Virus record (IMG/VR): IMGVR_UViG_3300042523_000478
Coordinates: 1-64,000 of that record
Strand: one strand, 5' to 3'
DNA from: a virus
DNA length: 64,000 nucleotides
The stretch's first letter is position 1. Each line of letters opens with the position of its first letter. The notes beneath the pieces were generated by a model that saw only the letters and a program-made list of their open reading frames with translations, was not told the origin of the DNA and did no database searches. A program made the translations under genes and the position numbers. Shown one piece after another: positions 3,568 to 53,495 of this stretch.

Positions 3568-4569
3568 TTATTGGTATTTTAAATATTCTTCATTACCGGT
3601 AGATATATATTCATTATTATTTGTAATAATTGCATTATTTAAAATATCTGGACTCGGTGTAGAAGTAGGAGTAGGGGTATTTGTAGGAGTAGGTGTCGGT
3701 GTAGGAGTATTTGTTGGTGTCGGTGTAGGAGTATTTGTAGGTGTTGGTGTTGGTGTTTGTGGGTAGTATTCAATTATTTCCCACTCTAAATTACTAGGGA
3801 CAACGAATATACTACCAAATTGGTCGTTTCTAGTTAAATTATCAAAATTTTCATTTATTGTAACTTGTGTTAATCCAGTTAAACTTCCGCTAGGAATTAT
3901 CACTCCAGAATTTATGGATATTGGAGATCCACTATAAACACCAAGAATGTGATTAAAGGACATTGCAATGTCTTGGTCAACAATTTTATTTGATGTTAAA
4001 ACATAGTCAATAATAACAGAACCTGATATTATGATTACCTCAAGTATTACAGATAATGGGGCGGGTGTTGGACTTGGTGTTGATGTTGGACTTGGTGTTG
4101 GTGGGATGTAACATTGGGTTGTTGTGGTTGTAGTTAACGGATAAACCGGTGTTGTGACACAACAAGGGAATTCAGTAACATAACAACTACTATACTCCAA
4201 ATCATCCGCAATAAAACTTTCCTGAACATTAATATATAATTTATCTCTAATTGGTAAAATTAAAACTCCCTGGTCATTTCTAAATAAAAATTGTCCCTCA
4301 TATCTACCTTCTTTTCTTGTGTCATTTCCGGTAAATTGGTAATAAACATAATATTCTGGTTCGGCATTTGAATCTAATAATACTTTATTAACAAATCCTG
4401 CTGGTCTTGTGTTTATTCTTGGAATCCCTGTTGCGGTATCAACCATTGAAAAGAATATTGCAGATTCCTCAATAGTGTCCATCATTAAGTTAAAGTCGCT
4501 TCTTCCGTCCTTAACTACTTGCATTTTCAATAAAGGGAGAGTTGCGTTTTTTTTAATAAAAAATTCCAT
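3568..4569 (-). CDS. putative virion protein: BppU-like N-terminal domain plus Pro-Thr repeats
   Basis: FFIKKNATLPLLKMQ...YQFTGNDTRKEGRYEGQF resembles a baseplate upper-protein N-domain; TTTTTT and (PT)n tracts. Confidence 0.55.
   Translation of the reverse strand: MEFFIKKNATLPLLKMQVVKDGRSDFNLMMDTIEESAIFFSMVDTATGIPRINTRPAGFVNKVLLDSNAEPEYYVYYQFTGNDTRKEGRYEGQFLFRNDQGVLILPIRDKLYINVQESFIADDLEYSSCYVTEFPCCVTTPVYPLTTTTTTQCYIPPTPSPTSTPSPTPAPLSVILEVIIISGSVIIDYVLTSNKIVDQDIAMSFNHILGVYSGSPISINSGVIIPSGSLTGLTQVTINENFDNLTRNDQFGSIFVVPSNLEWEIIEYYPQTPTPTPTNTPTPTPTNTPTPTPTPTNTPTPTSTPSPDILNNAIITNNNEYISTGNEEYLKYQ
3652..3762 (-). repeat. (Pro-Thr)n / PTPTN mucin-like coding repeat
   Basis: PQTPTPTPTNTPTPTPTNTPTPTPTPTNTPTPTSTPSP. 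Confidence 0.9.
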
Positions 4570-4582
4570 TTATAGTTTTTAC

Positions 4583-4590
4583 TATAAATA
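4583..4590 (-). promoter_or_regulatory. putative phage late promoter TATTTATA
   Basis: gataTATTTATAgtaaaaactataaATG on the minus strand. Confidence 0.55.
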
Positions 4591-4596
4591 TATCAA

Positions 4597-6282
4597 TTAA
4601 CATTCTTTTCTTAATTCTGAGGGATAAAAATCAAAACGGTTGTGTTCTGTTGGTGTTAACAACAGTAAACCAGGATTTATATTACCCTTTACGGTTTCTT
4701 GATAATTATGAGACATTATTGTTTGTTCATATGGAAAATTAAATTTATTCTTAATGTAACATTTATAATTACCTTCTTTTGACATTAGGATGGGCCAATT
4801 TGACAAATATATTTCTCCACTGGAATAAGGTACACCACCCAAAGATTTAATATGTTTAAATTCAAGACAAGGGGCATCCGGGTCATATCCTTGAGTTGGT
4901 AGTTTAGATTTTTCTGGCCAGTGACTTTCTCTAAATTCTTGGGGTACGTTATACCAAGACCATTGTGTTTGATGACAACCAAAAAATTCAGTATAATTTA
5001 ATTTTAAAAAATCAAAATTTTCCTTTTTTAAAATATTTAAAGTTTTATCAAACAACCCAGTTACTTTTCTTTGAAACCCGTTTTTACAAGCACTCTCTGA
5101 ACCATTGTAGAAAAGCATATCATCTTCAAAAAAAAAGTAATACCCCAAATCCTCCTGGTCATTAAAATGTTCGGCAATAAATTGTCTTCCACCTGTGATG
5201 CCAATGTTATCTTTTTTTATATGTTCAAAACCATATTGTTGACATAAGTTATCATATCTTTGTGTTGTTGACAAATCGGTTGAGTTATTAAGTAAGTATT
5301 TTTTAGTTTTACTTAAAAATAACAAATCATAATCTAACATTGAGTCAATAAGAGTTTCAAACTGAGACGGAGAATTAAAAGTTATAACATATAAACCTAC
5401 TGTATCTAACATTTTTTTATTTGTTTGAGTAGGGAATTTTAATGTTTTTCTGAAACTTTCAATTTTAACTAAATCATTTTTTACATCCTCAAAAAACTTA
5501 TAGATTAATCCATTTGATTCTATTTTAACATAATCAATTAATGATGGATATATGTAAGTCATTATGGTAAATATACTTTCTTCAGTTCCCATATATCCCT
5601 TACTTAAGGTATCTTTAAGTAAACTATAATATAGTACATTCATTTCAGATATTATTTCTTTTGGTCCACCAAAGAAACCACCCCTTGCCACCATATCAGA
5701 ATTAGTATTACAATACTCTTTCATTTTATCATAAGAAAATCCGTGAACTTCATTAACCGCATCATATGGAAAACATATAAATGTAAAGTTGTTAAATTTA
5801 GAATCTATTTTTTCTAAAACATTATCATTGGTAAAATACCCCACACTAAGCGTGTTTGTTATTCCCGCATCAATCCAGTATAATTTTTCCGAATTAAATT
5901 TATCTAAAATCTTAGCGTCATTTAATAAAAACATTTTAGACATCACAAGAGGATTGTACATTTCTAAACCACCTTGTGTTGATTCTTTTAACCAACCAGA
6001 TTGATTATACCAATTAGGATTGGTTCTAATTTTTTGAATGTCGTTATAAAATTCATTATTTTTAAACCATTCTAAATCTCGTAAAATAAATTGGGTGTTT
6101 TCTACCTGTCTTCTTTCGGAAACAAATTTATTTAATTCCTTGTCGCCAAAAATAATAAGATTACATTTAATCTTTAGTAGTTCGTCTAATTTTTTTAAAT
6201 AATGGTCTTTGTAAGATCTAGACCAACCTTCGGTTAAGTTATCTCTACCTAAATCCCATAAACCAGTAACTAATGTTATCAT
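4597..6282 (-). CDS. HtrL/YibB (WlaTC)-like glycosyltransferase fused to a C-terminal GT-A (GT2-like) domain
   Basis: ITLVTGLWDLGR, SKMFLL, YWIDAG, GGFFGG in the N-half; YVITFN...NIGITGGR...FFEDD in the C-half. Confidence 0.65.
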   Translation of the reverse strand: MITLVTGLWDLGRDNLTEGWSRSYKDHYLKKLDELLKIKCNLIIFGDKELNKFVSERRQVENTQFILRDLEWFKNNEFYNDIQKIRTNPNWYNQSGWLKESTQGGLEMYNPLVMSKMFLLNDAKILDKFNSEKLYWIDAGITNTLSVGYFTNDNVLEKIDSKFNNFTFICFPYDAVNEVHGFSYDKMKEYCNTNSDMVARGGFFGGPKEIISEMNVLYYSLLKDTLSKGYMGTEESIFTIMTYIYPSLIDYVKIESNGLIYKFFEDVKNDLVKIESFRKTLKFPTQTNKKMLDTVGLYVITFNSPSQFETLIDSMLDYDLLFLSKTKKYLLNNSTDLSTTQRYDNLCQQYGFEHIKKDNIGITGGRQFIAEHFNDQEDLGYYFFFEDDMLFYNGSESACKNGFQRKVTGLFDKTLNILKKENFDFLKLNYTEFFGCHQTQWSWYNVPQEFRESHWPEKSKLPTQGYDPDAPCLEFKHIKSLGGVPYSSGEIYLSNWPILMSKEGNYKCYIKNKFNFPYEQTIMSHNYQETVKGNINPGLLLLTPTEHNRFDFYPSELRKEC

Positions 6283-7526
6283 AAATTTCCTGTTATTCTT
6301 TCACACCATCCTTTTGATTTGGAAAAAGGCCAGACAACCCAATATGTTGGTTTTTCTTGAGTGTTAAACTCTCTCCATATTTTTCCATATCCGTCGGAAT
6401 CATTTTTTATTCTAATTATTTCGTTAACATCAGCGTCTTGTCTAAATAAAGTTTCATCTGATTTATTATGAAACGCAACCACAAAAAATTCATAATCATT
6501 TTCTGGTATTTTATTTAATGGTAAATCAATGCAGTGTTTGAATATTTGTAAAAAACTTTTTTCCCACTCTTCCTCATTATTAAAATCATATGGGTTTGGT
6601 GGGTATTTTTTATCTATTGTATATTGTTGTATCGATCTTTTTGAAAACATAACCCCAGCATATTTTTCATAATCTTTTAAAGTCCTTTCAGTACCAAATC
6701 CGTATTTCCCTAAGTCACCATCAAAAGATTCCCCATCAATACCCAAAATTTTTCTATTCTTGGAGTGGGATGAGCTATTTTTTAGATACCATTCTTTATC
6801 GTCGTCCCATTGTTTTGTTCTACCCTTACGAGTATATTCATGCCAAATAATAACTCTATGTGGATGAAATAAATCATATCCGTGAGTATATGCCCTTACT
6901 CCTACTGAAATTTCCTCTCCGTGAAAATAATATTCTGGGTCGTGTTGGACTTCTTTTGAGAACTCCCCCAATGTAAAACAAAAATGTGCCGAATAAAATC
7001 TTGATGGGATTGGTTCCGTTAGTTCTTTCCATCCCGGTATAACTTCAGGTAAAAAGAATACAACTCCTTCAGGGGTAAATCGATCAAAAGCCATACGCCA
7101 AGGTTCTGTAACTCTACCTTCTGGGTCGTTTTCCGGGTCAAAAGATGAAACATATCCGGTTAATAATGGTTTTTTATAACCCTTTTCTTGTAATTCTTTA
7201 ATCATATTAATTAAAGTTTCATCCCAGTTTTTTTCAAAACGCATATGGGAATCTATTTGTAGGGTATATTCTTCGTTTTTATAAAGTTGTTGAACTTGGT
7301 TTCTTGCCCAACAAACTCCTGTTGATTCTTCGTGTGGTATATTTAAAATTCTAAATCTATCGTCATTTTCATATTCCGTTAAATCATCAAATTTATCTTC
7401 AGGGTGAAATTGTCTTGCAATACCTATTCTTAGGTTCTCAGGTGATTTTGCATTACCTATCATATCTTTTATTGTTGGAATTAATTGAGGGTCCCTATAG
7501 GACGCAATCTGAACAAATATTCTCAT
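6279..7526 (-). CDS. GT60-like polypeptide alpha-GlcNAc transferase (Skp1/Gnt-type GlcNAc family)
   Basis: IFVQIASYRDP, GVCWARN, YTLQIDSHMRF (DSH motif), FHGEE, HGYDLFHP, YGFGTERTLKDY. Confidence 0.8.
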   Translation of the reverse strand: MRIFVQIASYRDPQLIPTIKDMIGNAKSPENLRIGIARQFHPEDKFDDLTEYENDDRFRILNIPHEESTGVCWARNQVQQLYKNEEYTLQIDSHMRFEKNWDETLINMIKELQEKGYKKPLLTGYVSSFDPENDPEGRVTEPWRMAFDRFTPEGVVFFLPEVIPGWKELTEPIPSRFYSAHFCFTLGEFSKEVQHDPEYYFHGEEISVGVRAYTHGYDLFHPHRVIIWHEYTRKGRTKQWDDDKEWYLKNSSSHSKNRKILGIDGESFDGDLGKYGFGTERTLKDYEKYAGVMFSKRSIQQYTIDKKYPPNPYDFNNEEEWEKSFLQIFKHCIDLPLNKIPENDYEFFVVAFHNKSDETLFRQDADVNEIIRIKNDSDGYGKIWREFNTQEKPTYWVVWPFSKSKGWCERITGNL

Positions 7527-7576: not shown

Positions 7577-7798
7577 TTAACATTCATAATAGTGAAATAT
7601 TTCACACCCATTAAAGTCAACTAATTTAATTAGTAATGAATTAACATCATCTAAAGGGGGAGGTACAATAAATGTTACCGATGGTGGCATACTTGTTGAT
7701 CCAGATATTAAATAACAATATGAATTAGTACTATCACAAAGATATATATCATATGGTGATGTACCTGTTGTTCCGGATATTTCTATTTGATGTAACAT
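7577..7798 (-). CDS. small beta-rich putative virion protein
   Basis: 73 aa; ISGTTGTSPY...ISGST; KLVDFNGCE SprB-like end; preceded by TATTTATA. Confidence 0.6.
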   Translation of the reverse strand: MLHQIEISGTTGTSPYDIYLCDSTNSYCYLISGSTSMPPSVTFIVPPPLDDVNSLLIKLVDFNGCEIFHYYEC

Positions 7799-7816: not shown

Positions 7817-8794
7817 TTATAACCCAAATCTTGATTTAGTTGAGTTCCAAATTGAGGTAATTTCAGGTTCGCCTAAATCAGTATCAAATATGTCTACTAT
7901 TGCTAATCTACCGCCCCAATAATCGGCTAAATCCCATCGTTCCATTAATCGTATACCGGCACCTGATGATGTTGGTGTTCCGACATAAGATGTACTATCA
8001 ACTAATATACTATTAACATATAATTTAACAGTTGATCCATCATATGTTCCAACAATATAATACCAATTATTAGCGGTTAATGAATAACCATCGGTAACTC
8101 TCCATCCACCATTAAAGAACCCTGAACTAAAACCACCATTATTTTTACCAAGTGAATAATTTATACCTCCACCAATAAAAGTTTCAGTTACGATACAAGG
8201 TGCGCTACCTGTCTCTGTTCCGGTATAATAATGCCAAACACCAACTGTCCAAGTACTCATACTTGGTAAGCTTGTATTACATATTGCGTATTGAGATGAT
8301 GATGAAACAAAATTAAAGTATCCTCCATTGCTTGAAGACCAAGTAGGTGAATTAGTTAAAGTAAATGATTTACCCCCAATAGAATCAATCCAAGGTCCTG
8401 ACCCTGAATAATCCGCAGCATCCAAAGATAATACGGGTGAAGTAAGTGTTGAATATGAGTTCCAATACCCATTTGTTGTTAATCCTGTTGATGCGTCAGG
8501 TGCGTTATTATAATTTGAGTTTAAAAGTATGTTTGTAATATCAATAAATTCATTGTCATCAAAACCATTTGTTCTAAAAAATCCAACTGAACCTGTTACG
8601 CCAGGTACTGGTGTTGGTTGACTATCATCAGGAACAGGTTGTGCGATCACATAACCCAAATCCTCATCGGGTCCGTTCCACCACTCCATCCCTGTGAATC
8701 CGGATGTAGGAAACCCTACCGCTAAATTACCAACCTGAATTGTTCCTGATATTGTTGATCCTGTATTATACGAAAAAGGTCTTGTTGTTGCCAT
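7817..8794 (-). CDS. LamG/concanavalin A-like lectin domain virion protein
   Basis: LSLDAADYSGSG.W, NGGYFNF, WYYIVGTYDGSTVKLYVN, C-terminal WNSTKSRFGL typical of phage LamG proteins. Confidence 0.8.
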   Translation of the reverse strand: MATTRPFSYNTGSTISGTIQVGNLAVGFPTSGFTGMEWWNGPDEDLGYVIAQPVPDDSQPTPVPGVTGSVGFFRTNGFDDNEFIDITNILLNSNYNNAPDASTGLTTNGYWNSYSTLTSPVLSLDAADYSGSGPWIDSIGGKSFTLTNSPTWSSSNGGYFNFVSSSSQYAICNTSLPSMSTWTVGVWHYYTGTETGSAPCIVTETFIGGGINYSLGKNNGGFSSGFFNGGWRVTDGYSLTANNWYYIVGTYDGSTVKLYVNSILVDSTSYVGTPTSSGAGIRLMERWDLADYWGGRLAIVDIFDTDLGEPEITSIWNSTKSRFGL

Positions 8795-8823: not shown

Positions 8824-9762
8824 CTATATAATTTCCATTATCTTATTATAAACCGCAAATATTGTTGGGTGACATTCAAATGTTTCTTTTTTTTCAAGAC
8901 AATTTACTAAAGATGGAATACCTTGTATCGATTCCCATTCTCTAACACCATATCTTATATCGGAAGCACAATTTAAACCACATCCACCAACTACATAATG
9001 GTATTTATATTCTTGTGAACCTTTTCTATATGGTGATCTAAACTCAGGATTTATTGAGCTACCTAATTGAATGATATCAACATCTGTTGTTCCTGCCAAA
9101 TGTAATAAACCTGAATCCATTGTGATGAAACACATAGATTTATTAATAAGATGCCAAGTTTGAGATAAACTTGTTTGATTCATTAGGTTCATACCCAATT
9201 CTATTGGAAAATTAAATACGGGTTTATCAACATTGGATCCACCAAGTTCTGATGAATCTTTACCAACTGATACAACGGCAATACCTCTTTCATTTAAAAG
9301 TTTTACAAGTAGTTGCCATTTTTTTGCGTCCCACGTTCTTGAGTTCCAGTTCTGAACGGGATGGATTAAAACATATTTTTCAGGTAAACCTTCAATTGGT
9401 TCATATTGATCTGAAATGTAATCCAATTCCATTTCATCTTTGCTTAACATAAACCCAAGATTAATCGCATGGAATTGTCTAATGTCCATTGCGTTATGTT
9501 TATAACAAACCCCATTTGGATGATATCCAATATTAAATGAATTAAAGATTTCGTATTCTTCTCTTTGTTCATCATTTATTGGGTTGAGTGATTCGTTATA
9601 AACTACATCCACATATGGGTTATTTGAAAATAGATATGGGTGGTGTGTCATCACCGAAATTTTTTTACCGTAAGAATTATAAAGTTTTCTTAACGTTGGT
9701 GTTACCGATAAAGTGTCACCTAACGCCCTACACCCTAACACATCAATACAAACATCTTTCAT
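8824..9762 (-). CDS. GT9-like (heptosyltransferase-fold) glycosyltransferase with C-terminal Cys cluster
   Basis: ALGDTL, YVLIHP...SRTW, FITMDSGLLHLAG; CGLNC...C...FECHP. Confidence 0.75.
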   Translation of the reverse strand: MKDVCIDVLGCRALGDTLSVTPTLRKLYNSYGKKISVMTHHPYLFSNNPYVDVVYNESLNPINDEQREEYEIFNSFNIGYHPNGVCYKHNAMDIRQFHAINLGFMLSKDEMELDYISDQYEPIEGLPEKYVLIHPVQNWNSRTWDAKKWQLLVKLLNERGIAVVSVGKDSSELGGSNVDKPVFNFPIELGMNLMNQTSLSQTWHLINKSMCFITMDSGLLHLAGTTDVDIIQLGSSINPEFRSPYRKGSQEYKYHYVVGGCGLNCASDIRYGVREWESIQGIPSLVNCLEKKETFECHPTIFAVYNKIMEII

Positions 9763-9813
9763 TCTATAATAATATGAACTTCACAATTAAAATGTATGTT
9801 TTATTTTTATAGT

Positions 9814-12800
9814 ATGAAAAAAACTAAAATAGTTTTAATAAGTTCTTATTGTGATACCAAAGAAAAAATTGATGTTTTAATAAATACCATCAAATCCGTT
9901 AAGAGTTACAATTTAGATGTAATGGTAAATAGTCCTTTACCCTTACCTTCCGATGTGATAAATATGTGTGATTTTTATGTGCAAACAAAAGAAAACCCAT
10001 TACTTAATTGGCCCGAAAAATCTGTTATGTCTTGGGTAAGACATACGGACAAAGATAAAGAAATTGTGATTAAAAGATCTGTAATTGATTATGGGTGGGC
10101 GGGACTTTACCAAACTAAAAAATTATCTGAATATGCTTTAACTTATGACTATGACAGATATTATCATATTATATATGATACGGAAATTGATGATACGGTG
10201 GTTTCTACTTTTTTATCTGATAAAATATGTAACTTTTTTCCATTTCATGAACACAAAGTTAGTTTACATTTAATTGCGTTAGACAGAGAAAACCTATTGA
10301 AATTTTCAAATCTGATTACTTTTGATAGTTACCTTAAATTTAATTGTATAGTTGAGAACTGGCTTTATGATACTCTAATTAATAGTAATCTGGATTATAA
10401 AATTGAATTAGAAAAAATTGATGATTTAATATTATTTCATAAAGACGAAAATTTATTTGATTACTCTGATATTAATGGTTTAGTTTTTTTTATAGTTAAA
10501 GATGTTGTAAATAATGATGAGGTTTGTTTATATTTTTACAATAATAAAGAAAAAATAAATGTTTTAATTACCGTAGATGGTGTCGAGTCCTCTTATGATA
10601 TATCCAATAGGGATATCATTAATTTAGGGTTTAAACCATGCAATATAAAAAATGTTTTAATATCTTATGATGGAATATCATCGGATATAACAGAAAAAAT
10701 AAAAAATATTATCCACAATGTTATTGAAATTATTATGAATAAATCAAAAATTAAACTATTATATCTTACACCACACCTATCAACAGGTGGAATGCCTCAA
10801 TTTGTATTAAAAAGAATTCAAGAACTCCAAAAATACAAAGACCAAATTGAAATATTTTTGGTTGAGTATTCTCAGTTTAGTAACACATACGTTGTCCAAC
10901 GAGATAAAATAATTAATCTATTAGGTGAAGGTCATTTTTTTAGTTTAGGTGATACAACCAACACAAAAAGAAAATATGAGTTAATTGATATTATTAAAAA
11001 CAATGATATTGATATTGTCCATTCTGAAGAAATGTTAGAAGGATTTGAAAGTTTTAATAAAATTCCACTACCATTGTTAAATCAACTTTATTCAAATGAT
11101 AGGTCTTGGAAAATGGTTGAGACTTGTCATAATGTTTGGTTTAATCCGCAAACACATAAAAAGTTCAATCCTGAAGCGTATTGTTTTGTTACCCCTTATC
11201 ATTTAAAGGAAACGTTTTTAAATGAAACACCAATTAAGTTTTTATCGTTATACCCAATTGAGAATAAGGTAACTAAAATTTTAGAGGAGAATGAAATCTA
11301 TGGTGATTTTAATCAAGTACCACTTATTGAAAAAATTAAAGTAAGAAATGAACTTGGTTTGGATATGTTTAAAACTCACGTACTTAATGTTGGGTTATGG
11401 ACAAGTGGTAAAAATCAAGGTGAAGGTGTTGAGGTTGCAAGAGAATTAATTGAATCAAATCCAGATATTGAATTCCATTTTATTGGGAACCAAGCTCCAA
11501 ACTTTGAAGACTATTGGGGTCCAATAATGAATAATTTACCATCAAACGTAAAAGTATGGGGTGAGCGTAATGACGTTGAAAAATTCATGACGGCTTGTGA
11601 TGTTTTAATGTTTAACTCAACTTGGGAATGTAATCCGTTGGTTGTTAGAGAATCAATCAACTATGGAATGAAAATCCTTGCAAGAGATTTACCACAATAC
11701 ATGGGTATGTTTGATGGATATATAACACCAATAGAAGGTGATGTTAAAAACATATCAAAACAATTGGTTGGACTTATCGAAAATAAGGACGTTTATAAAA
11801 TATTACCTGATAATACATTTGGTGAAGATTTATTAAATTTTTATAACGCAGTTACAAATATAAAAATTACCCAAAACAAACCATTAACCAAAGATTATAC
11901 TTTTGTTAGACATTATGTTAATCAACCTTATTTTGAGGTACAAGGAACCACAGAAAACAAATTGAACATTAAATATTATGATGATAACAATAATGTTAAT
12001 TATCAGAACGAATTATCAATTAATAGTTGGGTTAAATTAAATAAAGAATACTTTATTAAATGGAGAACAACGGTTGAAGAAAATGGTGAAATCATTTACG
12101 ATGAGACTTTAAATTTAAAAGATAAACGAGTATATATTTCTTTTGGATCAAAATCATTAGGAGATACAATGGCTTGGATTCCTTATTGTGAGGTATTTAG
12201 AAAAAAACATGGTTGTCAACTTATAGTATCAACATTCCTTAATAGTTTGTTTAAAGACCAATATCCTGATATTGAATTTGTTGAACCTGGTGATTTGGTA
12301 ACTAATATACATGCACAATATAGATTAGGTTGGTTTTACAATGAAGATGGTAAATTTGATGCAAACAAACACCCATTTGATTTTAAGAAAATGCCATTAC
12401 AAAAAACTGCAACCGATATATTAGGTTTAGATTATGAAGAAGTTAGACCACTATTAAAATTACCTGATACACCTAAAAAGAAAAAAGTTGGTATTGGGTT
12501 TCACTCAACTGCACAATCAAAATATTGGAACAACCCTGACGGATGGCAAACAGTTATAGACCATCTTAATAATTTGGGATATGAATGTATGGTCTATTCT
12601 AAAGAAGGTGATGGATATATGAATAACCATTATCCTGAAGGTGTAACAATATTTAAAGGAGGTAACCTACAAGAAGTAATTGATGACCTATCAAGTTGTG
12701 AGTTCTTTATTGGTTTAGGGTCTGGTTTATCTTGGTTGGCTTGGGCTTGTAAATTACCTGTCGTTTTGATTTCAGGATTTAGTGAGAAATGGGCGGAAAC

Positions 12801-30261: not shown

Positions 30262-30267
30262 ATTTTG

Positions 30268-44447: not shown

Positions 44448-44466
44448 ATAATATAAAAATAAAAGT

Positions 44467-45234: not shown

Positions 45235-45235
45235 T

Positions 45236-45850: not shown

Positions 45851-45852
45851 AT

Positions 45853-46647: not shown

Positions 46648-47326
46648 AAAAAAAATGAAATTACTAATTAAATTCCCAACAAGGGGTAGAAAAGAACTTT
46701 TTTTTAAAGTACTTGATAAATATTACGAATTATTAGACGATATTGATAATACAATATTTGTAATTACTTGTGATTTAGACGATAAAGAAATGAATGATGA
46801 ATCTGTGATAAAAAAATTAGAAACTTATAAAAATTTATTTTTTTATTTTGGTAATTCTAAAACAAAAATAGAGGCGGTAAATTCAGATTTAGATAAACAT
46901 AATGATTATGATATTATTTTATTAGCTTCGGATGATATGATACCACAAGTTAAAGGTTACGATAGTATCATTAGAAATAATATGAATGAATTTTACCCGG
47001 ATACTGATGGTGTTTTATGGTATTATGATGGATACAGAAGTGATTTAAATACTCTTAGTATTTTAGGTAAAACATATTATAAACGTTTTAATTATATTTA
47101 CCATCCTAGTTATGTTTCTTTTTATGCCGACAACGAATTTATGTTAGTCGCTAAAAGTTTAAACAAACAAACATATTTTAATAATTGTATAATTAAACAT
47201 TTTCATCCAGATATTACAAAAGATGTTCACAATGAATATGATGAAACTTACATAAAAAACAATGTAAGTGGTGATGAAAAAATTTACCAAAAAAGATTAA
47301 TAAACAATTTTAATAAACAATTTTAA
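46640..47326 (+). CDS. GT2-like glycosyltransferase
   Basis: KFPTRGR, KIEAVN, LASDDM, YADNEF, HFHP; start may be 46655. Confidence 0.75.
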   Translation: MNEKKMKLLIKFPTRGRKELFFKVLDKYYELLDDIDNTIFVITCDLDDKEMNDESVIKKLETYKNLFFYFGNSKTKIEAVNSDLDKHNDYDIILLASDDMIPQVKGYDSIIRNNMNEFYPDTDGVLWYYDGYRSDLNTLSILGKTYYKRFNYIYHPSYVSFYADNEFMLVAKSLNKQTYFNNCIIKHFHPDITKDVHNEYDETYIKNNVSGDEKIYQKRLINNFNKQF

Positions 47327-47338
47327 TATTAAATAAAG

Positions 47339-47968
47339 ATGTATTACGGACAAAATAATGAAGACAAAATAATTAATGATTATATTTTGGAAAAACACGG
47401 ACCAGATTATATTGGTACTGTTTTAGAAATTGGGGCAAATGATGGCATAACCCTTAGTAACTCAAAATTTTTTAGGGATCTTGGTTGGCAAGGTTTTTTA
47501 GTTGAGGCAGGGAAAAAACCTTTTGATAAATTAGTTGAAAACGTTTTAGGAAATAGTAAATGTTATAATGTTGCATTAGGTTCTGAAAATTGTAAATTAA
47601 AATTTTATGAAAGTGGTAAACAACTTGGGGAAAAGGACACGGGGTTAGTATCGTCTCTTATTATGGATGAAACTTTTAGGTGGAGACGTAGTGGTGTAAC
47701 CTATGAAGAAAACGAAGTAGAATGTTTAACCTGGAATTCTTTTTTAGAAAAATACAATCTTACAGAACAAAGTTTTAACATAATTAGTATTGATATTGAA
47801 GGAATGGATTATATAGTTCTTAATCAAATTGATTTAAACAAAGTAAATTGTGAGGTTGTTTGTGTTGAGTTTAATGGTAAACAAAAAGACCTTTTTGTTA
47901 ATTATTGTCAAAAATTCAATATGAATTTAATACACCAAAACGGTGAAAACTTAATTTTTGTAAAATAA
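47339..47968 (+). CDS. FkbM family methyltransferase
   Basis: YGQNNED, EIGANDG..LSNS, ISIDIEG, CVE. Confidence 0.85.
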   Translation: MYYGQNNEDKIINDYILEKHGPDYIGTVLEIGANDGITLSNSKFFRDLGWQGFLVEAGKKPFDKLVENVLGNSKCYNVALGSENCKLKFYESGKQLGEKDTGLVSSLIMDETFRWRRSGVTYEENEVECLTWNSFLEKYNLTEQSFNIISIDIEGMDYIVLNQIDLNKVNCEVVCVEFNGKQKDLFVNYCQKFNMNLIHQNGENLIFVK

Positions 47969-48003
47969 TAATAAAACCATATAAACATTTGAATAATAAT
48001 AAA

Positions 48004-48945
48004 ATGAATCCACACAAATCTTTAATAGAAAAACTAAATTCTAAAAACTATAACACATCTGAAAAAACGTATGACGAGGACTTCTATACGGACAATATTT
48101 TTGACTTATTAGAAGATGAATCAATAAATAACTTAAAAGGGGGATTTAATAGTCCATCAGATAATTTTAATAGATTTAAAGATATTATATCTGACCCAAA
48201 CAATTTGTATATTAATAGAGTAGAAAATGCAGGTACTGTTGAAAACGGAATTATTACTTTACATAATGGTATAAAACTTAGTACTGAATATTACGGTAAC
48301 TTTATTGAGATATTAAAATATAATTTAGGTGTTCACGAACCATCCGAAGAAAGAGCGTTTCAAAAAGTTTTAACTAAACTAGACAAAGGTTCTATTATGA
48401 TTGAATTAGGTAGTTACTGGTCAATGTACTCAATATGGTTTATGAAAGCAATTGAAGATTCAATCTCTTACTGTATTGAACCTGACGCTAATAATATGAG
48501 GGTTGGAATTAAAAATTTTGAAATTAACGAATTAAAACCAAATTTTATACAAGGCAAAATTTCTAAATCCGATTTTAACCCACTAACGTTCTTTTTAAAA
48601 AATAATTTAGAAAAAATAGATATATTACATAGTGACATTCAAGGATATGAGGTAGAGATGTTGGATATGATACAACCTTATCTTTCTGAAAAAAAAATAA
48701 AATATTTATTTATTAGTACACACAGTAATCCACTTCATTATGAGTGTATTTCTTTTTTAAAAAAAAATGGGTATAAAATTTTATCTTCGTGTGATTTTGA
48801 TAACGAATCTTTTCAATATGATGGTTTTATACTATCTTGTCCAGATAACTTATATGAGATTGATGAATTTAAAATCGGTAACAGAAGTAAAACTGAGTTA
48901 ATTAGTGATCAAGAATTAAATAAAATTATTAATAATAAATTATGA
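48004..48945 (+). CDS. FkbM-like methyltransferase
   Basis: GVHEP.EE, MIELGS.W, EP, LHSDIQGYE, FISTH; ATG 48004 preferred over TTG 47989. Confidence 0.7.
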   Translation: MNPHKSLIEKLNSKNYNTSEKTYDEDFYTDNIFDLLEDESINNLKGGFNSPSDNFNRFKDIISDPNNLYINRVENAGTVENGIITLHNGIKLSTEYYGNFIEILKYNLGVHEPSEERAFQKVLTKLDKGSIMIELGSYWSMYSIWFMKAIEDSISYCIEPDANNMRVGIKNFEINELKPNFIQGKISKSDFNPLTFFLKNNLEKIDILHSDIQGYEVEMLDMIQPYLSEKKIKYLFISTHSNPLHYECISFLKKNGYKILSSCDFDNESFQYDGFILSCPDNLYEIDEFKIGNRSKTELISDQELNKIINNKL

Positions 48946-49979
48946 AAAAAATTTTAATACTAGGTGGTGGTGGTTTTATAGGTGGCCATTTATCAAAAAA
49001 ATTATATGAACAAGGAAATTTTGTAAGGGTTGTTGATATAAAAAACCACGAATATTTTAAAAGTTCAGATTTTTGTTCTGAATTTATTTTAGGTGATTTG
49101 AGAGACCCAAATTTTGTTTCCACAATAATGTTCTCACCAAAACAAATTTCTATTGAGGATGGTATTAATTCTTTTGATGAGGTATACCAACTAGCCGCAG
49201 ATATGGGTGGAGCTGGTTATATTTTTACGGGAGAAAATGATGCAAACGTTATGCATAATTCGGCACTAATTAACTTAAATGTTAGTTATTATGCATCAAA
49301 GTTTGGTGTTAAAAAATTATTCTATTCGTCATCGGCTTGTATGTACCCAGAACATAATCAACTAGACCCTGAAAATCCAAACTGTGAAGAATCTTCCGCA
49401 TATCCAGCAAATCCCGATTCTGAATATGGTTGGGAAAAATTATTTAGTGAAAGGTTGTATTTTGCGTTTATGAGGAATTATAAACTAGATATTAGAGTTG
49501 GGAGATTCCATAATATATTTGGTCCGTATGGGACTTGGGATGGTGGTAAAGAAAAGGCACCTGCGGCTATGTGTCGAAAAGTATGTGAAACAAATAATGG
49601 TAAATCTATTGAAGTATGGGGAGATGGTCAACAAACCAGATCATTTCTATATATTGATGAGTGTGTTGAGGCGGTTTTAAAATTAATGGAAAGTGAATTT
49701 ATTGGGCCTGTTAATATAGGATCTGAAGAAATGGTAACCATTAATGAGTTAGCTCAAATGGCTATTGATATTTCTAATAAAGAAATTACAATTAATAATA
49801 TAAATGGTGAAGAATTCCAAAAAAAATATGGATTTAAATGTCCGGTTGGTGTAAGAGGAAGAAATTCCGACAACACACTCTTCAAAGAAAAAATTGGGTG
49901 GTCAGTGTCCCAACCTCTATTTGAAGGGATGAAAAAAACATATGAATGGATAAATAAACAAGTAGTTTTAAATAAATGA
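48942..49979 (+). CDS. GDP-mannose 3,5-epimerase-like NAD-dependent epimerase
   Basis: GGGGFIG, LAADMGGAGYI, YSSSACMYP, PDSEYGWEKLFSE, GGKEKAPAA.CRK, GVRGRNSDN. Confidence 0.85.
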   Translation: MKKILILGGGGFIGGHLSKKLYEQGNFVRVVDIKNHEYFKSSDFCSEFILGDLRDPNFVSTIMFSPKQISIEDGINSFDEVYQLAADMGGAGYIFTGENDANVMHNSALINLNVSYYASKFGVKKLFYSSSACMYPEHNQLDPENPNCEESSAYPANPDSEYGWEKLFSERLYFAFMRNYKLDIRVGRFHNIFGPYGTWDGGKEKAPAAMCRKVCETNNGKSIEVWGDGQQTRSFLYIDECVEAVLKLMESEFIGPVNIGSEEMVTINELAQMAIDISNKEITINNINGEEFQKKYGFKCPVGVRGRNSDNTLFKEKIGWSVSQPLFEGMKKTYEWINKQVVLNK

Positions 49980-51621: not shown

Positions 51622-51625
51622 AATT

Positions 51626-52687
51626 ATGAACTCAGAACAAGTAAAAAAACTAGAGAAATCAATCCAAAGTATGAAGGATAAAAAATCTCGTTTGTATTTT
51701 ATAGTACAAGATACTAAAGGAAATGCTAGGGCTTCTGTTAGATATACTTATCAGATGGCAATGACACTTAAAAAAAACGGTTATAACCCAATTATATTAC
51801 ACGAAAATAAAGAATATTTTGGTGTTGGTAGTTGGTTAGGTGAAGAATATATGTCCGAACTCCCACATAAATCAATTGATGATGGAAACTTAGAAATTTC
51901 TCCGGATGACCTTTTAATTATTCCAGAAATATTTGGTTACATTATGGAACAAGTTAAAAATTTACCTTGTGGTAAAGTTGTTTTAACTCAAGCATATGAC
52001 CATATTTTTGAAACTTTACAACCTGGTCAAAGTTGGACTCAGATGAGTTTTTATAAATGTATTACTACATCAGAAAAACAAAAAGAACGTATTGACACTC
52101 TAATGAGAAAAATTTCATTTGACATTATTGAACCGGTTATTTCTGAAGTTTTTGAAAAATCAGAGTTTCCACCTAAAACAATTATCTCAATTCACACTAG
52201 AGACCAAAGAGATACTGCCAACATTATAAAACAATTCTACGTTAGATTCCCACAATATAGATGGATAACATTTAGAGATTTAAGAGGTCTAACTGAAACT
52301 GAATTTGCAAATGCACTTAAAGATAGTTTCTTATCTGTCTGGGTAGATGAAACTAGTGGGTTTGGTACCTTTCCTCTTGAATCAATGAAGATGGGAGTTC
52401 CGGTAATTGGTCTAGTACCTAATTTGCAACCGGAATGGTTAAATGAAGATAACGGACTATGGTTAGTTAATAAAAACTCAATGGTGGATGTTATTTCAGA
52501 TTTTGTCCAAAATTGGTTAGAGGATAATGTTAACCCTGAATTATATACTTTTATGAAAAAAACCTCGTCTGAATATTCAGATATGTCAAAGTTTGAATCT
52601 CGCGTTTTGGAAGTGTTCTCAAACATGATAGAAACAAGAATGAAAACATTTGAAGAACAATTAACTAAATTTGAAACAATAGAATAA
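51626..52687 (+). CDS. GT-B (GT4-like) glycosyltransferase
   Basis: DLLIIPE, SGFGTFPLESMKMGVPVIG. Confidence 0.7.
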   Translation: MNSEQVKKLEKSIQSMKDKKSRLYFIVQDTKGNARASVRYTYQMAMTLKKNGYNPIILHENKEYFGVGSWLGEEYMSELPHKSIDDGNLEISPDDLLIIPEIFGYIMEQVKNLPCGKVVLTQAYDHIFETLQPGQSWTQMSFYKCITTSEKQKERIDTLMRKISFDIIEPVISEVFEKSEFPPKTIISIHTRDQRDTANIIKQFYVRFPQYRWITFRDLRGLTETEFANALKDSFLSVWVDETSGFGTFPLESMKMGVPVIGLVPNLQPEWLNEDNGLWLVNKNSMVDVISDFVQNWLEDNVNPELYTFMKKTSSEYSDMSKFESRVLEVFSNMIETRMKTFEEQLTKFETIE

Positions 52688-52688
52688 T

Positions 52689-53495
52689 ATGGAAACAAAA
52701 AACACTATTTCGGTTATCTTACCAATTAAAACAGGTAATGTATTTGGCTTTGATGATTATTTCACTAAAGCAATCACCTCACTTAAAAACCAAACTGGAT
52801 TGGTTGACGAACTAATCATTGTCCATACTGGAGAATCTACATTCTTAAATTTTGTAAAGGATTTTGATTTTGAAGGTCTAAACGTTATTATTGAACAATA
52901 CGATGAAGACCCTAATTTTGCGTCTCAAGTTAATTACGGTATTGAGAAAGCAACTTCTGAATGGGTATCTATTTTAGAATTTGATGATGAGTACTCCAAC
53001 ATTTGGTTTAAAAATGCAAAAAACTATATGGGAATTTATGGAGATGTGGACGCATTTTTACCAATAGTTGTTGACGTTAACGATAAAGGGGTGTTTGTAG
53101 GATTTACAAACGAAGCCACATTTGCGGCAAACTTCACATCGGAAATGGGAATTTTAACTAATGAAACATTACTTACATATCAAAACTTCCAAATCTCAGG
53201 AATGTTAATTAAAAAAGAAAAATATGTTAAATTTGGTATGATTAAACCATCTTTTAGATTAACCTTTGGTTATGAGTTCTTATTAAGAATGACACATAAT
53301 TCACTTAAATTTATGGCAATCCCTAAAATTGGTTATAAACATATGAATTTAAGAGAGGGGTCAATTTTTTGGAACTATAAAAATGGTGATGATAGACTTT
53401 CTGAAGATGAGGTTAAGTTCTGGGTTGAGTCGGCAAAAAAAGAATATCTATATATTAAAGATAGAGACATAAAATATGAACCACAAGAAGTTTAA
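52689..53495 (+). CDS. GT2 family glycosyltransferase
   Basis: ISVILPI, VNYGI, WVSILEFDD. Confidence 0.75.
   Translation: METKNTISVILPIKTGNVFGFDDYFTKAITSLKNQTGLVDELIIVHTGESTFLNFVKDFDFEGLNVIIEQYDEDPNFASQVNYGIEKATSEWVSILEFDDEYSNIWFKNAKNYMGIYGDVDAFLPIVVDVNDKGVFVGFTNEATFAANFTSEMGILTNETLLTYQNFQISGMLIKKEKYVKFGMIKPSFRLTFGYEFLLRMTHNSLKFMAIPKIGYKHMNLREGSIFWNYKNGDDRLSEDEVKFWVESAKKEYLYIKDRDIKYEPQEV

Follow-up and report, generated by a model that had tools for sequence, protein, structure and literature searches.

We analysed a window of 64,000 nucleotides at the start of a 92-kb fragment, itself about 31% complete, from an uncultured freshwater phage, a T4-like jumbo phage with a genome of roughly 300 kb. 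Its phage origin was corroborated by a Gp23-type capsid protein, portal, terminase, prohead protease, and PhoH, and a Bacteroidota host is plausible, based on a protease that is 56-59% identical to Flavobacteriaceae proteins. The island described here is flanked by a DNA polymerase gene on one side and early-looking genes on the other, and lies outside the head/tail module. The first-pass annotation had placed its bounds at 3568-53495, which proved too narrow, since the fibre genes at 95-3528 also belong to it. The island contains the following features:

95..1066, minus strand: 323-aa fibre-like protein, last of a fibre run (21% Ser+Thr, 1% Lys)
1069..3528, minus strand: 819-aa fibre (F1069; sequence repeats and composition)
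3568..4569, minus strand: adaptor with BppU_N-like N-domain (AF2 fold and Pro-Thr tracts)
4597..6282, minus strand: 561-aa tandem GT-A glycosyltransferase (Pfam HtrL_YibB, 1.4e-13)
6279..7526, minus strand: GT60-family candidate polypeptide GlcNAc-transferase (Pfam GlcNAc PF11397, 1.1e-72)
7577..7798, minus strand: Ser/Thr-rich ORF of 73 aa that contains one lysine, immediately upstream of GT60
7817..8794, minus strand: 325-aa fibre-like protein (Pfam Laminin_G_3, 2e-16; 24% Ser+Thr, 1% Lys)
8824..9762, minus strand: 312-aa GT9-family glycosyltransferase (Pfam Glyco_transf_9, 7.5e-15)
9796..14289, plus strand: 1497-aa multidomain enzyme (PDB, TIGR04414, Pfam GT1 and GT9)
14369..22780, minus strand: 2803-aa proline-free collagen-like fibre (Pfam Collagen, 4.5e-265)
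22793..23716, minus strand: 307-aa adaptor, directly ahead of the collagen gene
23748..25903, minus strand: sulfation cassette (Pfam and NCBIfam)
25909..26790, minus strand: 293-aa conserved protein inside the enzyme cassette (weak match to phrog_8954, function not known)
26811..27719, minus strand: 302-aa TibC-like glycosyltransferase (PDB TibC 4RAP, E 1.3e-18)
27712..28455, minus strand: GT8 glycosyltransferase (Pfam Glyco_transf_8, 3.8e-22)
28551..34356, minus strand: two paralogous fibres of 550 and 1362 aa (24-27% Ser+Thr, 1% Lys)
34465..36651, minus strand: 728-aa first protein of the fibre run (F34465; Pro-Thr tract)
39728..40942, plus strand: clade-conserved GT4-like glycosyltransferase (Pfam Glyco_trans_1_4, 7.6e-5, below the gathering score)
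42226..48945, plus strand: second variable enzyme island (Pfam, PHROG 14945, NCBIfam fkbM)
48942..49979, plus strand: GDP-mannose 3,5-epimerase (PDB 2C59, E 6.4e-90 versus 6e-25 for the next family)
51626..53495, plus strand: two clade-conserved glycosyltransferases, GT1-like and GT2 (Pfam)

Enzymes were assigned through Pfam, NCBIfam, PHROGs, PDB, and fold searches. This yielded 12 glycosyltransferase (GT) genes with together 15 GT domains in the window, compared to an initial tally of about 15 GT-like genes. Two GT domains each are encoded by the HtrL-like gene (two GT-A), the 1497-aa gene (GT4 and TibC-like), and the GT2_5+GT2 gene, while the single-domain genes comprise GT60, GT9, the second TibC-like enzyme, GT8, the GT4-like enzyme, GT92/GT2_4, a PHROG-annotated GT, the GT1-like enzyme, and GT2. 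The four methyltransferase domains noticed in the first pass were all recovered (Methyltransf_24, two FkbM, and a MycE-like domain inside the 1497-aa protein), as was the cysC/sulfotransferase module, consisting of an APS kinase with P-loop and a Sulfotransfer_3 enzyme, and the supposed GDP-Man epimerase is, by its margin over the next family, a true GDP-mannose 3,5-epimerase. No TM-like segment was found in any enzyme of the island, and all are predicted to be soluble.

In the left half, enzymes alternate with eight fibre-like ORFs in which Ser+Thr makes up 20-39% and Lys 0-3% of the residues, compared to 6-10% Lys in the enzymes, so that the proposed alternation with Ser/Thr-rich structural genes holds. 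These fibre genes are low in lysine and rich in Ser/Thr/Gly/Asn. The composition cut (high Ser+Thr, low Lys) is missed by F34465 (16% Ser+Thr, 5% Lys), which is assigned to the fibre group from its Pro-Thr tract and position, not from its composition. In Pfam and PHROG searches, none of the fibre-like proteins matched a known virion protein family, and the 323-aa protein had no match at all; its homologues come after an F1069-type fibre in related loci (e.g., L071). The 819-aa fibre itself, for which 20 of the 80 related loci have a homologue, carries pentapeptide-like NNxIGxxF repeats and is a candidate beta-solenoid, while the 325-aa protein ends in a ConA/LamG lectin-like domain and accompanies GT9 and the multidomain GT in relatives. 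The largest gene described as Ser/Thr-rich is more precisely a collagen-repeat protein with 664 G-X-Y triplets, in which X is Thr in 88% and Y is Asn, Ser, or Asp. It is interrupted twice by globular segments, ends in a globular domain of about 320 aa, and includes 346 N-x-S/T sites, and its gene has a raised GC content (44-46%); the length of 2803 aa may have been affected by repeat assembly. The two paralogous fibres combine 15-residue 'xSxVGGGxxNTxS' repeats (period 15) with beta-hairpin modules of about 45 residues, and each gene is followed by a terminator-like hairpin.

Pro-Thr tracts occur in both adaptors and in F34465. In the adaptor at 3568..4569, a conserved 135-aa N-domain (BppU_N-like Ig fold; shared by 67 of the 80 related loci) is combined with a central domain and a pair of Pro-Thr tracts. 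Its AF2 model (pLDDT 78) matched TP901-1 BppU best (4v96_AA, Z 8.2, rmsd 3.7, 102 aligned), followed by 3uh8 (Z 7.6) and the 80alpha and NF5 baseplates, and ESM also led to BppU_N; at a Z of about 8, and with Ig folds being common, we consider this predicted likeness moderately supported. The 307-aa adaptor joins a conserved N-domain of 73 aa to a C-domain through about 45 aa of Pro-Thr tract; its N-domain was found in 27 related loci, always with a fibre downstream. F34465 consists of a clade-conserved N-terminal half, a Cys-rich segment, and the Pro-Thr tract, with the N-terminal part conserved in 21 loci and the tract present in 14 of the 14 homologues seen. The motif TATTTATA precedes the 819-aa fibre, the 73-aa ORF, and the 307-aa adaptor, and also lies upstream of F34465. 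In relatives, small fibre-like ORFs fill the slot of the 73-aa ORF.

The GT60 enzyme contains a DSH motif (residues 92-94) and has no detectable TM segment, and viral contigs contain 413 relatives that are at least 72% identical to it; the start of its gene overlaps the neighbouring gene. In CAZy, GT60 comprises polypeptide alpha-GlcNAc-transferases of protists (Dictyostelium, Trypanosoma cruzi) and the Skp1 hydroxyproline GlcNAc-transferase Gnt1, and its known acceptor type is Thr/Pro-rich, mucin-like tracts. The phage enzyme resembles these through its strong Pfam match, the DxH motif, and the Thr/Pro-rich tracts in neighbouring genes, but is phage-encoded and predicted to be soluble, whereas the protist enzymes are Golgi-anchored. 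The adjacent tandem GT-A gene, present in 76 of 80 related loci, combines an N-domain of HtrL_YibB type (GT6-like fold) with an inverting GT-A-type C-domain, in whose EDD motif E386 and D388 are invariant and D387 is retained in 42 of 43 sequences. For its AF2 model (pLDDT 87; VIA Z 13-15 per domain), Foldseek returned enzymes with two GT-A domains, LH3, LARGE1, Mimivirus R699, and K4CP, as top matches (E 1e-10 to 1e-11).

Within the 1497-aa enzyme, a GT4 domain (516-664) is followed by an Aah/TibC-type protein O-glycosyltransferase domain (722-1060; TibC 4RAP, E 4.4e-70) and a MycE-like sugar O-methyltransferase domain (1305-1441; MycE 3SSM, 7e-13). To our knowledge, characterised members of the GT60 and Aah/TibC families act on proteins only. 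The first pass had invoked both families, and this stands for GT60 (E 1e-72), while for Aah/TibC it stands only for the 1497-aa domain, which scores 297.5 bits against TIGR04414 (equivalog cut-off 200). The 302-aa enzyme is a clear sub-threshold relative (124-126 bits) with a conserved CxxC...C...C iron-finger pattern, its four Cys aligning with those of 4RAP, and the 312-aa GT9 enzyme is unassignable, scoring 37 bits for Aah/TibC and 36 bits for LPS heptosyltransferase III, with a four-Cys pattern at its C-terminus. A TibC-like gene is present in 4 of 4 complete relatives; an isomerase of the ADP-heptose pathway was not found in these phages.

The sulfation cassette encodes a DUF2061 protein, a 154-aa HxGH nucleotidyltransferase, the APS kinase, and the Sulfotransfer_3 sulfotransferase in overlapping reading frames, with P-loop and HYGH motifs present. 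It is accessory, being intact in 13-14 of 80 related loci (73-82% identity), and neither ATP sulfurylase nor CysD was found in complete relatives. In the PDB, the sulfotransferase has relatives only among TPST1 structures, which are protein-tyrosine sulfotransferases. The neighbouring 293-aa protein had no match in Pfam and PDB searches, and is conserved in 16 loci at 76% identity.

The right-hand cluster (39.7-53.5 kb) contains no fibre gene and is interleaved with nucleotide-metabolism genes, adjoined by dUTPase, exonuclease, and PhoH. Its GT4-like gene is 66-68% identical in relatives, and the GT1-like and GT2 genes are both found in 45 of 80 loci (58% identity). The variable stretch between them encodes, in order, GT92/GT2_4, GT2_5+GT2, an unknown protein, a Methyltransf_24/CmcI-like methyltransferase, a further unknown protein, the PHROG-annotated GT, and two FkbM methyltransferases; GT2_5+GT2 is found in 32 of 80 loci over about half its length, the other genes in 0-9. 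The epimerase, whose relatives in viral contigs number more than 600, would provide the phage with GDP-L-galactose or GDP-L-gulose.

A check of co-occurrence across related phages, as suggested by the first-pass annotation, showed the GT60 and tandem GT-A core beside fibre proteins in 63 distinct loci, with enzyme and fibre cassettes exchanged around this conserved core. Of 61 distinct architectures, 52 have a fibre-like gene upstream of GT60, and Pro-Thr tracts occur at 50 of 63 GT60 loci. Furthermore, the 302-aa TibC-like gene occurs in 9 of 9 loci with 15-residue-repeat fibres compared to 8 of 54, and the multidomain TibC enzyme in 13 of 17 with collagen or LamG fibres compared to 14 of 46, both counts being uncorrected for shared ancestry and cassette linkage. 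In the cultured Microcystis phage Mel-JY01, a TibC-like gene comes immediately after the gene of a Ser-rich 'structural protein'.

Several characterised systems invite comparison. TibC-TibA and Aah-AIDA-I of Escherichia coli (bacterial autotransporter heptosyltransferases, BAHT; TIGR04414; PDB 4RAP, 4RB4) likewise rely on soluble GT9-type enzymes with a four-Cys iron finger that are encoded beside a repeat-rich surface protein, and cytoplasmic modification is also what we propose for the phage. Their acceptors are autotransporter passengers, whereas the phage candidates are collagen-like, 15-residue-repeat, and LamG fibres; moreover, the phage enzyme is fused to GT4 and sugar O-methyltransferase domains, which implies chain extension, and no ADP-heptose pathway gene was found on the phage side. 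In Mimivirus/Megavirinae fibrils and the Bacillus anthracis BclA exosporium, dedicated clusters build complex, partly methylated glycans, and collagen-like proteins with Thr-containing, proline-poor Gly-X-Y repeats carry O-glycans. The phage differs in its bacterial host, its tailed virion, and the position of Thr at X, not Y. While Mimivirus R699 and two collagen GTs, LH3 and COLGALT1, are among the fold matches of the tandem GT-A model, for this predicted structure the likeness is one of general two-GT-A architecture (LARGE1 and K4CP match equally), not of specific kinship.

The closest cultured counterpart is the Xanthomonas jumbo phage XacN1 (related phages: Xoo-sp13, CM1, and RAS14), whose virions contain at least 2 periodic acid-Schiff (PAS)-positive proteins (PMC5852040). 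XacN1 carries GT60 (ORF334, 48% identity), the tandem GT-A gene (ORF330, 40%), and a GT9, and these core genes lie near baseplate-wedge genes and a giant 3313-aa PT-tract protein. However, it is annotated with only two GTs, compared to 12 GT genes here, and the region examined contains no collagen-like fibre, sulfation cassette, methyltransferases, or TibC equivalog. Mycobacteriophages modify their own virion proteins with phage-encoded GTs (Freeman et al. 2023, as cited in PMC12619734), yet the targets reported there are capsid and tail-tube subunit C-termini, not fibres, and one or two GTs of other families act without a fibre, methylation, or sulfation module.

Taken together, we think it fairly probable that the island is a cytoplasmic glycosylation system for the phage's own baseplate-attached adaptors and fibres, acting before or during assembly. 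Soluble GTs interleaved with fibre genes, two of them from protein-acting families, suggest that the phage probably sugar-coats its own tail appendages; the identity of the acceptors is read from adjacency and composition. The first pass had proposed glycosylation of the phage's own fibres and capsid, of which the fibre part appears likely, given the protein-acting families, shared gene runs, conserved pairing, and XacN1, and the capsid part is unsupported. GT60 would use UDP-GlcNAc to attach GlcNAc to Thr within the Pro-Thr linkers, which may serve as spacers between the anchoring N-domains and the distal parts of adaptors and fibres, and the tandem GT-A enzyme, universally linked to GT60, would add the next two sugars. 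TibC-type enzymes would place heptose or hexose onto Ser/Thr on the repeat surfaces of the 15-residue-repeat fibres and the Gly-Thr-Asn/Ser collagen-like fibre, and the fused GT4 and O-methyltransferase domains of the 1497-aa protein would extend and cap this glycan. The remaining GTs, the epimerase as source of L-galactose/L-gulose, and the FkbM and CmcI-type methyltransferases may elaborate the chains. APS kinase would produce PAPS from host APS, and the sulfotransferase would sulfate either the glycan or tyrosines.

Several observations speak against fibre glycosylation: the position of the island outside the head/tail module, fibre-like proteins without a known virion family, the missing ADP-heptose isomerase, the right-hand cluster without fibre genes, and the fact that GT2, GT4, GT8, GT9, and GT25 are also typical of LPS synthesis. 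A rival reading is that the enzymes remodel host surface glycans (LPS, capsule, host glycoproteins) during infection, e.g., to block superinfection or slow adsorption of progeny to lysed cells, with fibre adjacency reflecting only a common hypervariable 'host-interface' island. GT2, GT4, GT8, and GT9, as well as GT10, GT11, GT25, and GT61 of relatives, are common in LPS/O-antigen synthesis, the HtrL/YibB name derives from the E. coli LPS core cluster, the right-hand cluster sits amid nucleotide-metabolism genes, and priming and export enzymes could come from the host. We nevertheless regard host remodelling as unlikely: Bac_transf, WecA-type, Wzx (Polysacc_synt), and GT41 proteins were found neither in the contig nor in four relatives that are 97-100% complete, leaving these without a priming phosphoglycosyl transferase or a Wzx-type flippase (among lipid-carrier functions, the search covered priming enzymes and Wzx), all enzymes are predicted to be soluble, the two best-identified ones come from the protein-acting families GT60 and Aah/TibC, particular fibre types tend to be accompanied by particular enzyme cassettes, and glycoproteins are present on XacN1 virions.

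It is quite improbable that the fibres are unmodified, or modified by one or two enzymes, with most GT and methyltransferase genes being accessory 'morons' of unrelated or no current function, gathered at a recombination hot spot. While most enzymes encoded in the two variable stretches are shared with only a few relatives and cassette boundaries match conserved N-domains, which are potential recombination sites, GT60 is kept at 72-96% identity, the tandem GT-A gene and the epimerase are as widespread as described above, and reading frames are intact and often overlapping, with invariant catalytic motifs. More remote still is glycosylation of hypermodified phage DNA bases against restriction, as in T4, by some of the GTs, especially the right-hand ones. 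Multi-GT phage clusters that hypermodify DNA are known (as cited in PMC12619734), and the interleaving with nucleotide-metabolism genes would fit. However, a search for a hydroxymethylase found none, and the thymidylate synthases of relatives and the dUTPase, which is canonical, are of the ordinary kind: one ThyA homologue passes two equivalog cut-offs (334, 311 bits), another falls just short of its best model's (322.7 versus 327), and both are distant from the island and absent from one complete relative. Furthermore, the GT families differ from those of known DNA glucosyltransferases, and GDP-L-galactose supply and sugar O-methyltransferases are unlike known DNA modifications.

Phage virion glycosylation itself is already known; what is described here is a GT60/fibre island with a collagen-like fibre, methylation, and sulfation genes. 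Shielding, receptor mimicry, or 'luring' as roles of a sugar coat on the tail appendages are speculation. As the cassettes are swapped between related phages, each phage would show its own glycan and fibre 'serotype'.

Glycosyltransferase (GT) genes were assigned by Pfam, NCBIfam, PHROGs and PDB sequence searches together with one fold prediction, yielding 12 genes with 15 GT domains in the window:

4597-6282, tandem GT-A enzyme of the HtrL type, two domains
6279-7526, GT60 (E 1.1e-72)
8824-9762, GT9, 312 aa
9796-14289, 1497-aa protein with GT4, TibC-type and MycE-like methyltransferase domains
26811-27719, 302-aa TibC-like protein
27712-28455, GT8
39728-40942, GT4-like
42226-42939, GT92/GT2_4
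42936-44447, GT2_5 and GT2
46640-47326, GT annotated by PHROG
51626-52687, GT1-like
52689-53495, GT2

Profile and structure searches bear out the inventory of the first-pass annotation, which had listed, besides the glycosyltransferases, four methyltransferase domains (all four are found in the window), a GDP-Man epimerase and a cysC/sulfotransferase module. The epimerase is a genuine GDP-mannose 3,5-epimerase (PDB 2C59, 305 bits, E 6e-90, residues 3-342) and is separated from other SDR sugar epimerases by its distance to the runner-up family, UDP-glucuronate decarboxylase, at 91 bits. No membrane-spanning segments were found in any of the enzymes, and the PDB sequence search gave no match for the GT60, the HtrL-like protein or a conserved 293-aa protein (25909-26790).

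The window makes up the first 64 kb of a single virus record of 91,986 bp, 31% complete according to CheckV. The window has a GC content of approximately 30% and no tRNA genes in its 64 kb; it encodes PhoH, a dUTPase and a protein with a weak late-sigma-like match, while a Gp23-type major capsid protein starts at its end, followed just past it by prohead protease, portal and large terminase. Together, these genes clearly mark the record as phage DNA. The capsid protein shares 43-46% identity with those of the nearest deposited phages (uncultured huge phages, Flavobacterium phage immuto and Microcystis phage Mel-JY01). Within IMG/VR, the GT60 gene has 413 relatives with at least 72% identity; their contigs reach 322 kb in length, and 97-100% completeness is given for four of the GT60-bearing relatives (290-322 kb). 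Given these many close relatives, which presumably stem mostly from freshwater metagenomes, as judged by their IMG sample numbers, the window represents part of a large jumbo phage clade of the T4-like type. A 684-aa AAA+ protease (contig 78728-80782, + strand; 16729-18783 of the contig piece L001) shares 56-59% identity with proteins of Flavobacteriaceae and about 50% with those of other phyla, which hints that the host belongs to the Flavobacteriales or to a different lineage of Bacteroidota. Genome size and habitat are compatible with the moraphages (PMC12619734), as are the predicted host and the four core GTs. In the cellular genome set, close GT60 relatives are confined to five MAG contigs (one of 230 kb), probably the genomes of phages that were binned together with the host; two of these loci, L274 and L277, were binned in Saprospiraceae MAGs. 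Another related locus (L031, 18818-20950, - strand) encodes, just past the DNA polymerase gene, a protein of 710 aa in which a complete Fe/Mn superoxide dismutase domain is joined to unassigned sequence.

The first-pass annotation had further claimed that GT60 and Aah/TibC, two families acting on proteins, are present, and this stands for the GT60 gene and for one domain of the 1497-aa protein, while the 302-aa protein is sub-threshold and the 312-aa GT9 unassignable. Judged by its sequence, membership of the window gene in GT60 is unambiguous: it scores 245.8 bits (cut-off 21) against the GlcNAc model PF11397 and carries the DxH motif as DSH at residues 92-94. Against the NCBI model for Aah/TibC (TIGR04414, BAHT; equivalog cut-off 200 bits), residues 722-1060 of the 1497-aa protein (window 11965-12975) score 297.5 bits, and the same residues match the TibC crystal structure (4RAP) with E 4.4e-70. 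The 302-aa protein matches TibC with E 1.3e-18 and lies under the cut-off (124-126 bits), as does the 312-aa GT9 (37-41 bits), which was left without a subfamily assignment because it scores similarly on TibC and LPS heptosyltransferase models. The 302-aa protein has a putative iron-finger (CxxC...C...C) close to its C-terminus, all four cysteines of which align with those of TibC in 4RAP, and the sequence of the TibC domain in the 1497-aa protein has an identical four-Cys pattern and spacing. A TibC-like gene is present in each of the four complete relatives. The fusion of the TibC domain in the 1497-aa protein to a GT4 and a macrolide-sugar-type O-methyltransferase domain (3SSM, E 7e-13) suggests that one polypeptide may start, extend and cap a glycan.

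The known acceptor of Aah/TibC is the passenger of a neighboring autotransporter. The window encodes no autotransporter, and the neighbors of its TibC-type genes are instead collagen-like, 15-residue-repeat and LamG fibre-like proteins; the logic of an adjacent repeat protein holds, whereas the class of the candidate acceptor differs. A GmhA-type isomerase of the ADP-heptose pathway was absent from the contig and the four complete relatives in a profile search that matched in control genomes, and the donor of a TibC-type enzyme would therefore be host-supplied or another sugar.

For the tandem GT-A enzyme, the AF2 model (pLDDT 87) comprises two GT-A domains, the N-terminal one resembling retaining GT6 enzymes (Z of about 13) and the C-terminal one, with an invariant EDD motif, resembling the inverting GnT-I, POMGNT1 and B4GALNT1 (Z 14-15). 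Foldseek matches to the whole model are enzymes with two GT-A domains, including LH3, COLGALT1, Mimivirus R699, LARGE1, K4CP and heparosan synthase, bacterial glycosaminoglycan synthases among them. We read the model only as a putative bifunctional transferase that would add two different sugars; it may also act specifically on collagen or as a polymerase. To conclude collagen specificity from the matches to LH3, COLGALT1 and Mimivirus R699 would be an over-interpretation, and this reading was dropped: LARGE1, K4CP and heparosan synthase reach comparable scores, and each domain on its own matches generic GT-A folds.

The alternation of enzymes with extremely Ser/Thr-rich genes described for the left half was confirmed, with the correction that the largest such gene (14369-22780, 2803 aa) encodes a collagen-repeat protein (Pfam Collagen, PF01391, E 4.5e-265). 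Fibre-like ORFs of the left half contain 20-39% Ser+Thr and 0-3% Lys, compared to 6-10% Lys in the enzymes. This bimodal Lys content, low in fibre-like proteins and high in enzymes, extends over the entire window and 63 related loci, so that low Lys could mark exposed virion proteins of the clade by composition. The fibre-type sequences include pentapeptide-like repeats, 15-residue 'xSxVGGGxxNTxS' repeats (two paralogues of 550 and 1362 aa, 28551-34356), collagen triplets and a LamG domain. In the collagen-like fibre, 664 Gly-X-Y triplets form five runs, the longest of 1386 residues, with Thr at X in 88% of triplets and Asn, Ser or Asp at Y. The repeats are free of proline and are broken at two places by globular segments, and the C-terminal domain is globular as well. 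As one continuous triple helix it would measure approximately 0.5 micrometre (about 570 nm), a figure to be read with the caveat that the repeat length may be mis-assembled. The local GC content of its gene is 44-46%, compared to about 30% for the genome, and the gene creates long spurious ORFs on the opposite strand (e.g., 17883-22364).

Most fibre-like proteins had no match in PHROGs or Pfam, and their membership in the virion is therefore not demonstrable by homology. Indirect evidence for it comes from their repeats and LamG domain, sequences that are typical of fibres. The conserved 135-aa N-domain of the adaptor at 3568-4569 has no Pfam match either and is predicted to form an Ig-like sandwich (pLDDT 78). 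Its best fold matches are BppU of phage TP901-1 (4v96_AA, Z 8.2, rmsd 3.7, 102 aligned residues, 19% identity; 3uh8, Z 7.6), Ig-like folds being common, and the baseplates of phages 80alpha and NF5, and an independent language-model (ESM) search gave BppU_N (PF10651) as a lead with a score of 0.89. The likeness of the modeled domain to baseplate BppU lends moderate support to a location of the fibre-like proteins in the virion. For the N-terminal half of the first fibre protein (34465-36651, - strand), the ESM Atlas provided no usable lead. Pro-Thr tracts are found in this protein and in the adaptors at 3568-4569 and 22793-23716. In the first fibre protein, the tract is flanked by a dense Cys-rich segment (CxxC, CGCGCG, CxxC; residues ~280-400), which may form a knot held together by metal or by disulfides.

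The T4 late promoter TATAAATA was rejected as a late promoter signal, since its count (15 found, 17 expected) is not above expectation. Its reverse reading, TATTTATA, is likewise not enriched (15 vs 17 expected), and its positions are far from random: in gene orientation, it lies 11-20 nt before the ATG start codons of genes for fibres, adaptors and other structural-looking proteins, some of them near the capsid gene, and often follows TTG(A). These sites are located at 3542-3549, 4583-4590, 7803-7810, 23729-23736, 36658-36690, 58336-58343 and 62708-62715. This placement is compatible with TATTTATA being a candidate late promoter or leader element and with a shared late expression of the fibre, adaptor and structural-looking genes.

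We compared 80 related loci around the GT60 gene, which correspond to 63 distinct architectures. They share a scaffold on one strand, in which the first fibre protein with its conserved N-terminal half is followed by variable fibre-like genes, GT60, 0-6 variable enzymes, the tandem GT-A gene, the conserved domain of approximately 135 aa (sometimes extended into a fibre), optional further fibres and, finally, a family-B DNA polymerase gene. In 52 of 61 architectures, GT60 has a fibre-like gene as its immediate upstream neighbor. TPTPTxTPT-type Pro-Thr tracts, the candidate acceptors associated with GT60, occur in neighboring proteins in 50 of the 63 architectures (exceptions are mostly truncated loci) and in all homologues of the first fibre protein that were seen.

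The variable enzymes differ from phage to phage. In one complete relative (locus L082, 11260-17052, + strand), GT60 is followed by GT10 and GT11 (fucosyltransferase families), GT25 and GT61, none of which occurs in the window; judging from these families, this set implies a different, possibly fucosylated, glycan. Two gene sets form unit cassettes, one consisting of a LamG fibre, GT9 and the multidomain TibC enzyme, the other of GT8, the TibC-like gene, an unknown gene and the sulfation set, together with 15-residue-repeat fibres. Co-occurrence of transferases with repeat proteins in related phages, proposed in the first-pass annotation as a check, was indeed observed: the 302-aa TibC-like gene goes with 15-residue-repeat fibres in 9/9 loci vs 8/54, and the corresponding figures for the multidomain TibC enzyme and collagen-like or LamG fibres are 13/17 vs 14/46; these counts are descriptive only and inflated by shared ancestry and physical linkage. 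In the right half, a GT4-like gene, part of the GT2_5+GT2 gene, the epimerase, PhoH and two GTs form a conserved core, and a second variable stretch (42.2-48.9 kb) carries methyltransferases.

The sulfation cassette, an accessory present in 13-14 of the 80 related loci, comprises four overlapping genes, including a P-loop APS kinase (Pfam 68.5 bits vs cut-off 21.1) and a Sulfotransfer_3 enzyme (77.7 vs 27). The set for the PAPS pathway is incomplete, as the profile search found no ATP sulfurylase or CysD in the contig or the four complete relatives; APS must therefore be made by the host or by a 154-aa HxGH nucleotidyltransferase (24172-24636, - strand). The latter is always retained in the cassette and might make APS, its best matches being NMN adenylyltransferases, all sub-threshold. 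The only solved relatives of the sulfotransferase (25085-25903, - strand) are protein-tyrosine sulfotransferases (TPST1, E 6e-6), which match over the PAPS-binding part only. The sulfate acceptor could thus be either a glycan or a tyrosine of a phage protein, which makes the sulfated glycocalyx of the first-pass annotation one of two readings.

If the glycans were instead assembled on a lipid, the carriers could come from host enzymes, as could APS and ADP-heptose; neither class of phosphoglycosyl priming transferases (PF02397, PF00953) nor a Wzx-type flippase (PF01943) was found in the contig and the four relatives that are 97-100% complete. The 14 control genomes matched the searched families, with GT41 in only 2 and ATP sulfurylase in only 5 of them. 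N-linked glycosylation of the collagen-like fibre would have 346 N-G-T/S sites at its disposal, a sequon density that the GTN-GTS repeat itself produces; in the other fibres, N-x-S/T is not enriched over composition, except for a modest excess in the 1362-aa fibre (52 vs 36.8 expected). This route was rejected on a search confined to GT41 (HMW1C-type) N-glycosyltransferases, none of which was found in the contig and the four complete relatives. As for phage DNA as the substrate, no pyrimidine hydroxymethylase was found in the window fragment (the contig being 31% of a genome), and ThyA homologues in three of the four complete relatives score as thymidylate synthase, one passing two equivalog cut-offs and the other lying just under that of the best model. 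With ThyA homologues that score as the ordinary enzyme and a canonical dUTPase, DNA hypermodification appears to have no visible substrate pathway.

Virus-encoded glycosylation of virion proteins is a kind of system that is already known. Virion glycosylation is well documented in giant and archaeal viruses; in tailed phages, we know of only a few documented cases (mycobacteriophages, and XacN1 through periodic-acid-Schiff staining). The search of deposited phage genomes for GT60 relatives yielded four jumbo phages, which infect Xanthomonas and Stenotrophomonas, and no others. The GT60 of XacN1 (ORF334, 48% identity) heads an operon whose last gene, ORF330, is homologous to the tandem GT-A enzyme over the full length (40%, E 1.5e-142); a GT9 (ORF328) adjoins it, and this block borders baseplate-wedge genes as well as the gene of a 3313-aa protein that carries a Pro-Thr tract. 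At least two virion proteins of XacN1 are periodic-acid-Schiff-positive, for which the authors proposed the phage GTs as the source (PMC5852040). In Microcystis phage Mel-JY01, a TibC-like multidomain gene directly follows an annotated structural protein that is Ser-rich (26% S+T, 2% K). The stained virion proteins of XacN1 and the gene order of Mel-JY01 back the general idea of virion-protein glycosylation, for which published experimental backing is thin; a literature search of incomplete coverage revealed nothing relevant on phage-encoded TibC or glycosylated tail fibres. Since both phages are cultured, the idea can be tested directly in culture.

Taken together, the enzyme families, the gene order and the lack of matches to lipid-carrier priming enzymes and a Wzx-type flippase make glycosylation by the phage of its own fibre and adaptor proteins the best available reading of the left-hand island, and there we consider the corresponding claim of the first-pass annotation somewhat likely to be correct. 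For the right-hand cluster, the capsid and glycan sulfation that claim is a hypothesis, and the ecological roles it proposed (shielding, mimicry or luring) are speculation. An extension to the entire clade is tentative and, in our view, doubtful: these phages would build a proteoglycan- or mucin-like coat on baseplate-anchored appendages, including the collagen-like fibre. In this scheme, O-glycosylation would start independently by GT60 on Pro-Thr linkers and by TibC-type enzymes on repeat surfaces. Exchangeable sets of enzyme genes would provide for the subsequent extension, O-methylation and sulfation of the chains, and their exchange would generate glycan 'serotypes' that determine host range or help to escape recognition by the host. 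Such a coat, if it exists, would be the tailed-phage counterpart of giant-virus fibril glycans.

With both protein routes, methylation, L-sugar supply and a sulfation cassette, the window represents an unusually complete example, in which a widespread freshwater clade would spend tens of kilobases on the task, using protein-glycosylating families known from bacterial adhesins and protists. If confirmed, the system would provide tools for glyco-engineering, namely soluble enzymes with Pro-Thr and collagen-like repeats as their acceptors in the bacterial cytoplasm. Confirmation would also offer a reason for the presence of 'LPS-like' GT genes in so many jumbo phages, and fibre glycans would be a major, variable determinant of adsorption, stability or immune/defence evasion in environmental phages.
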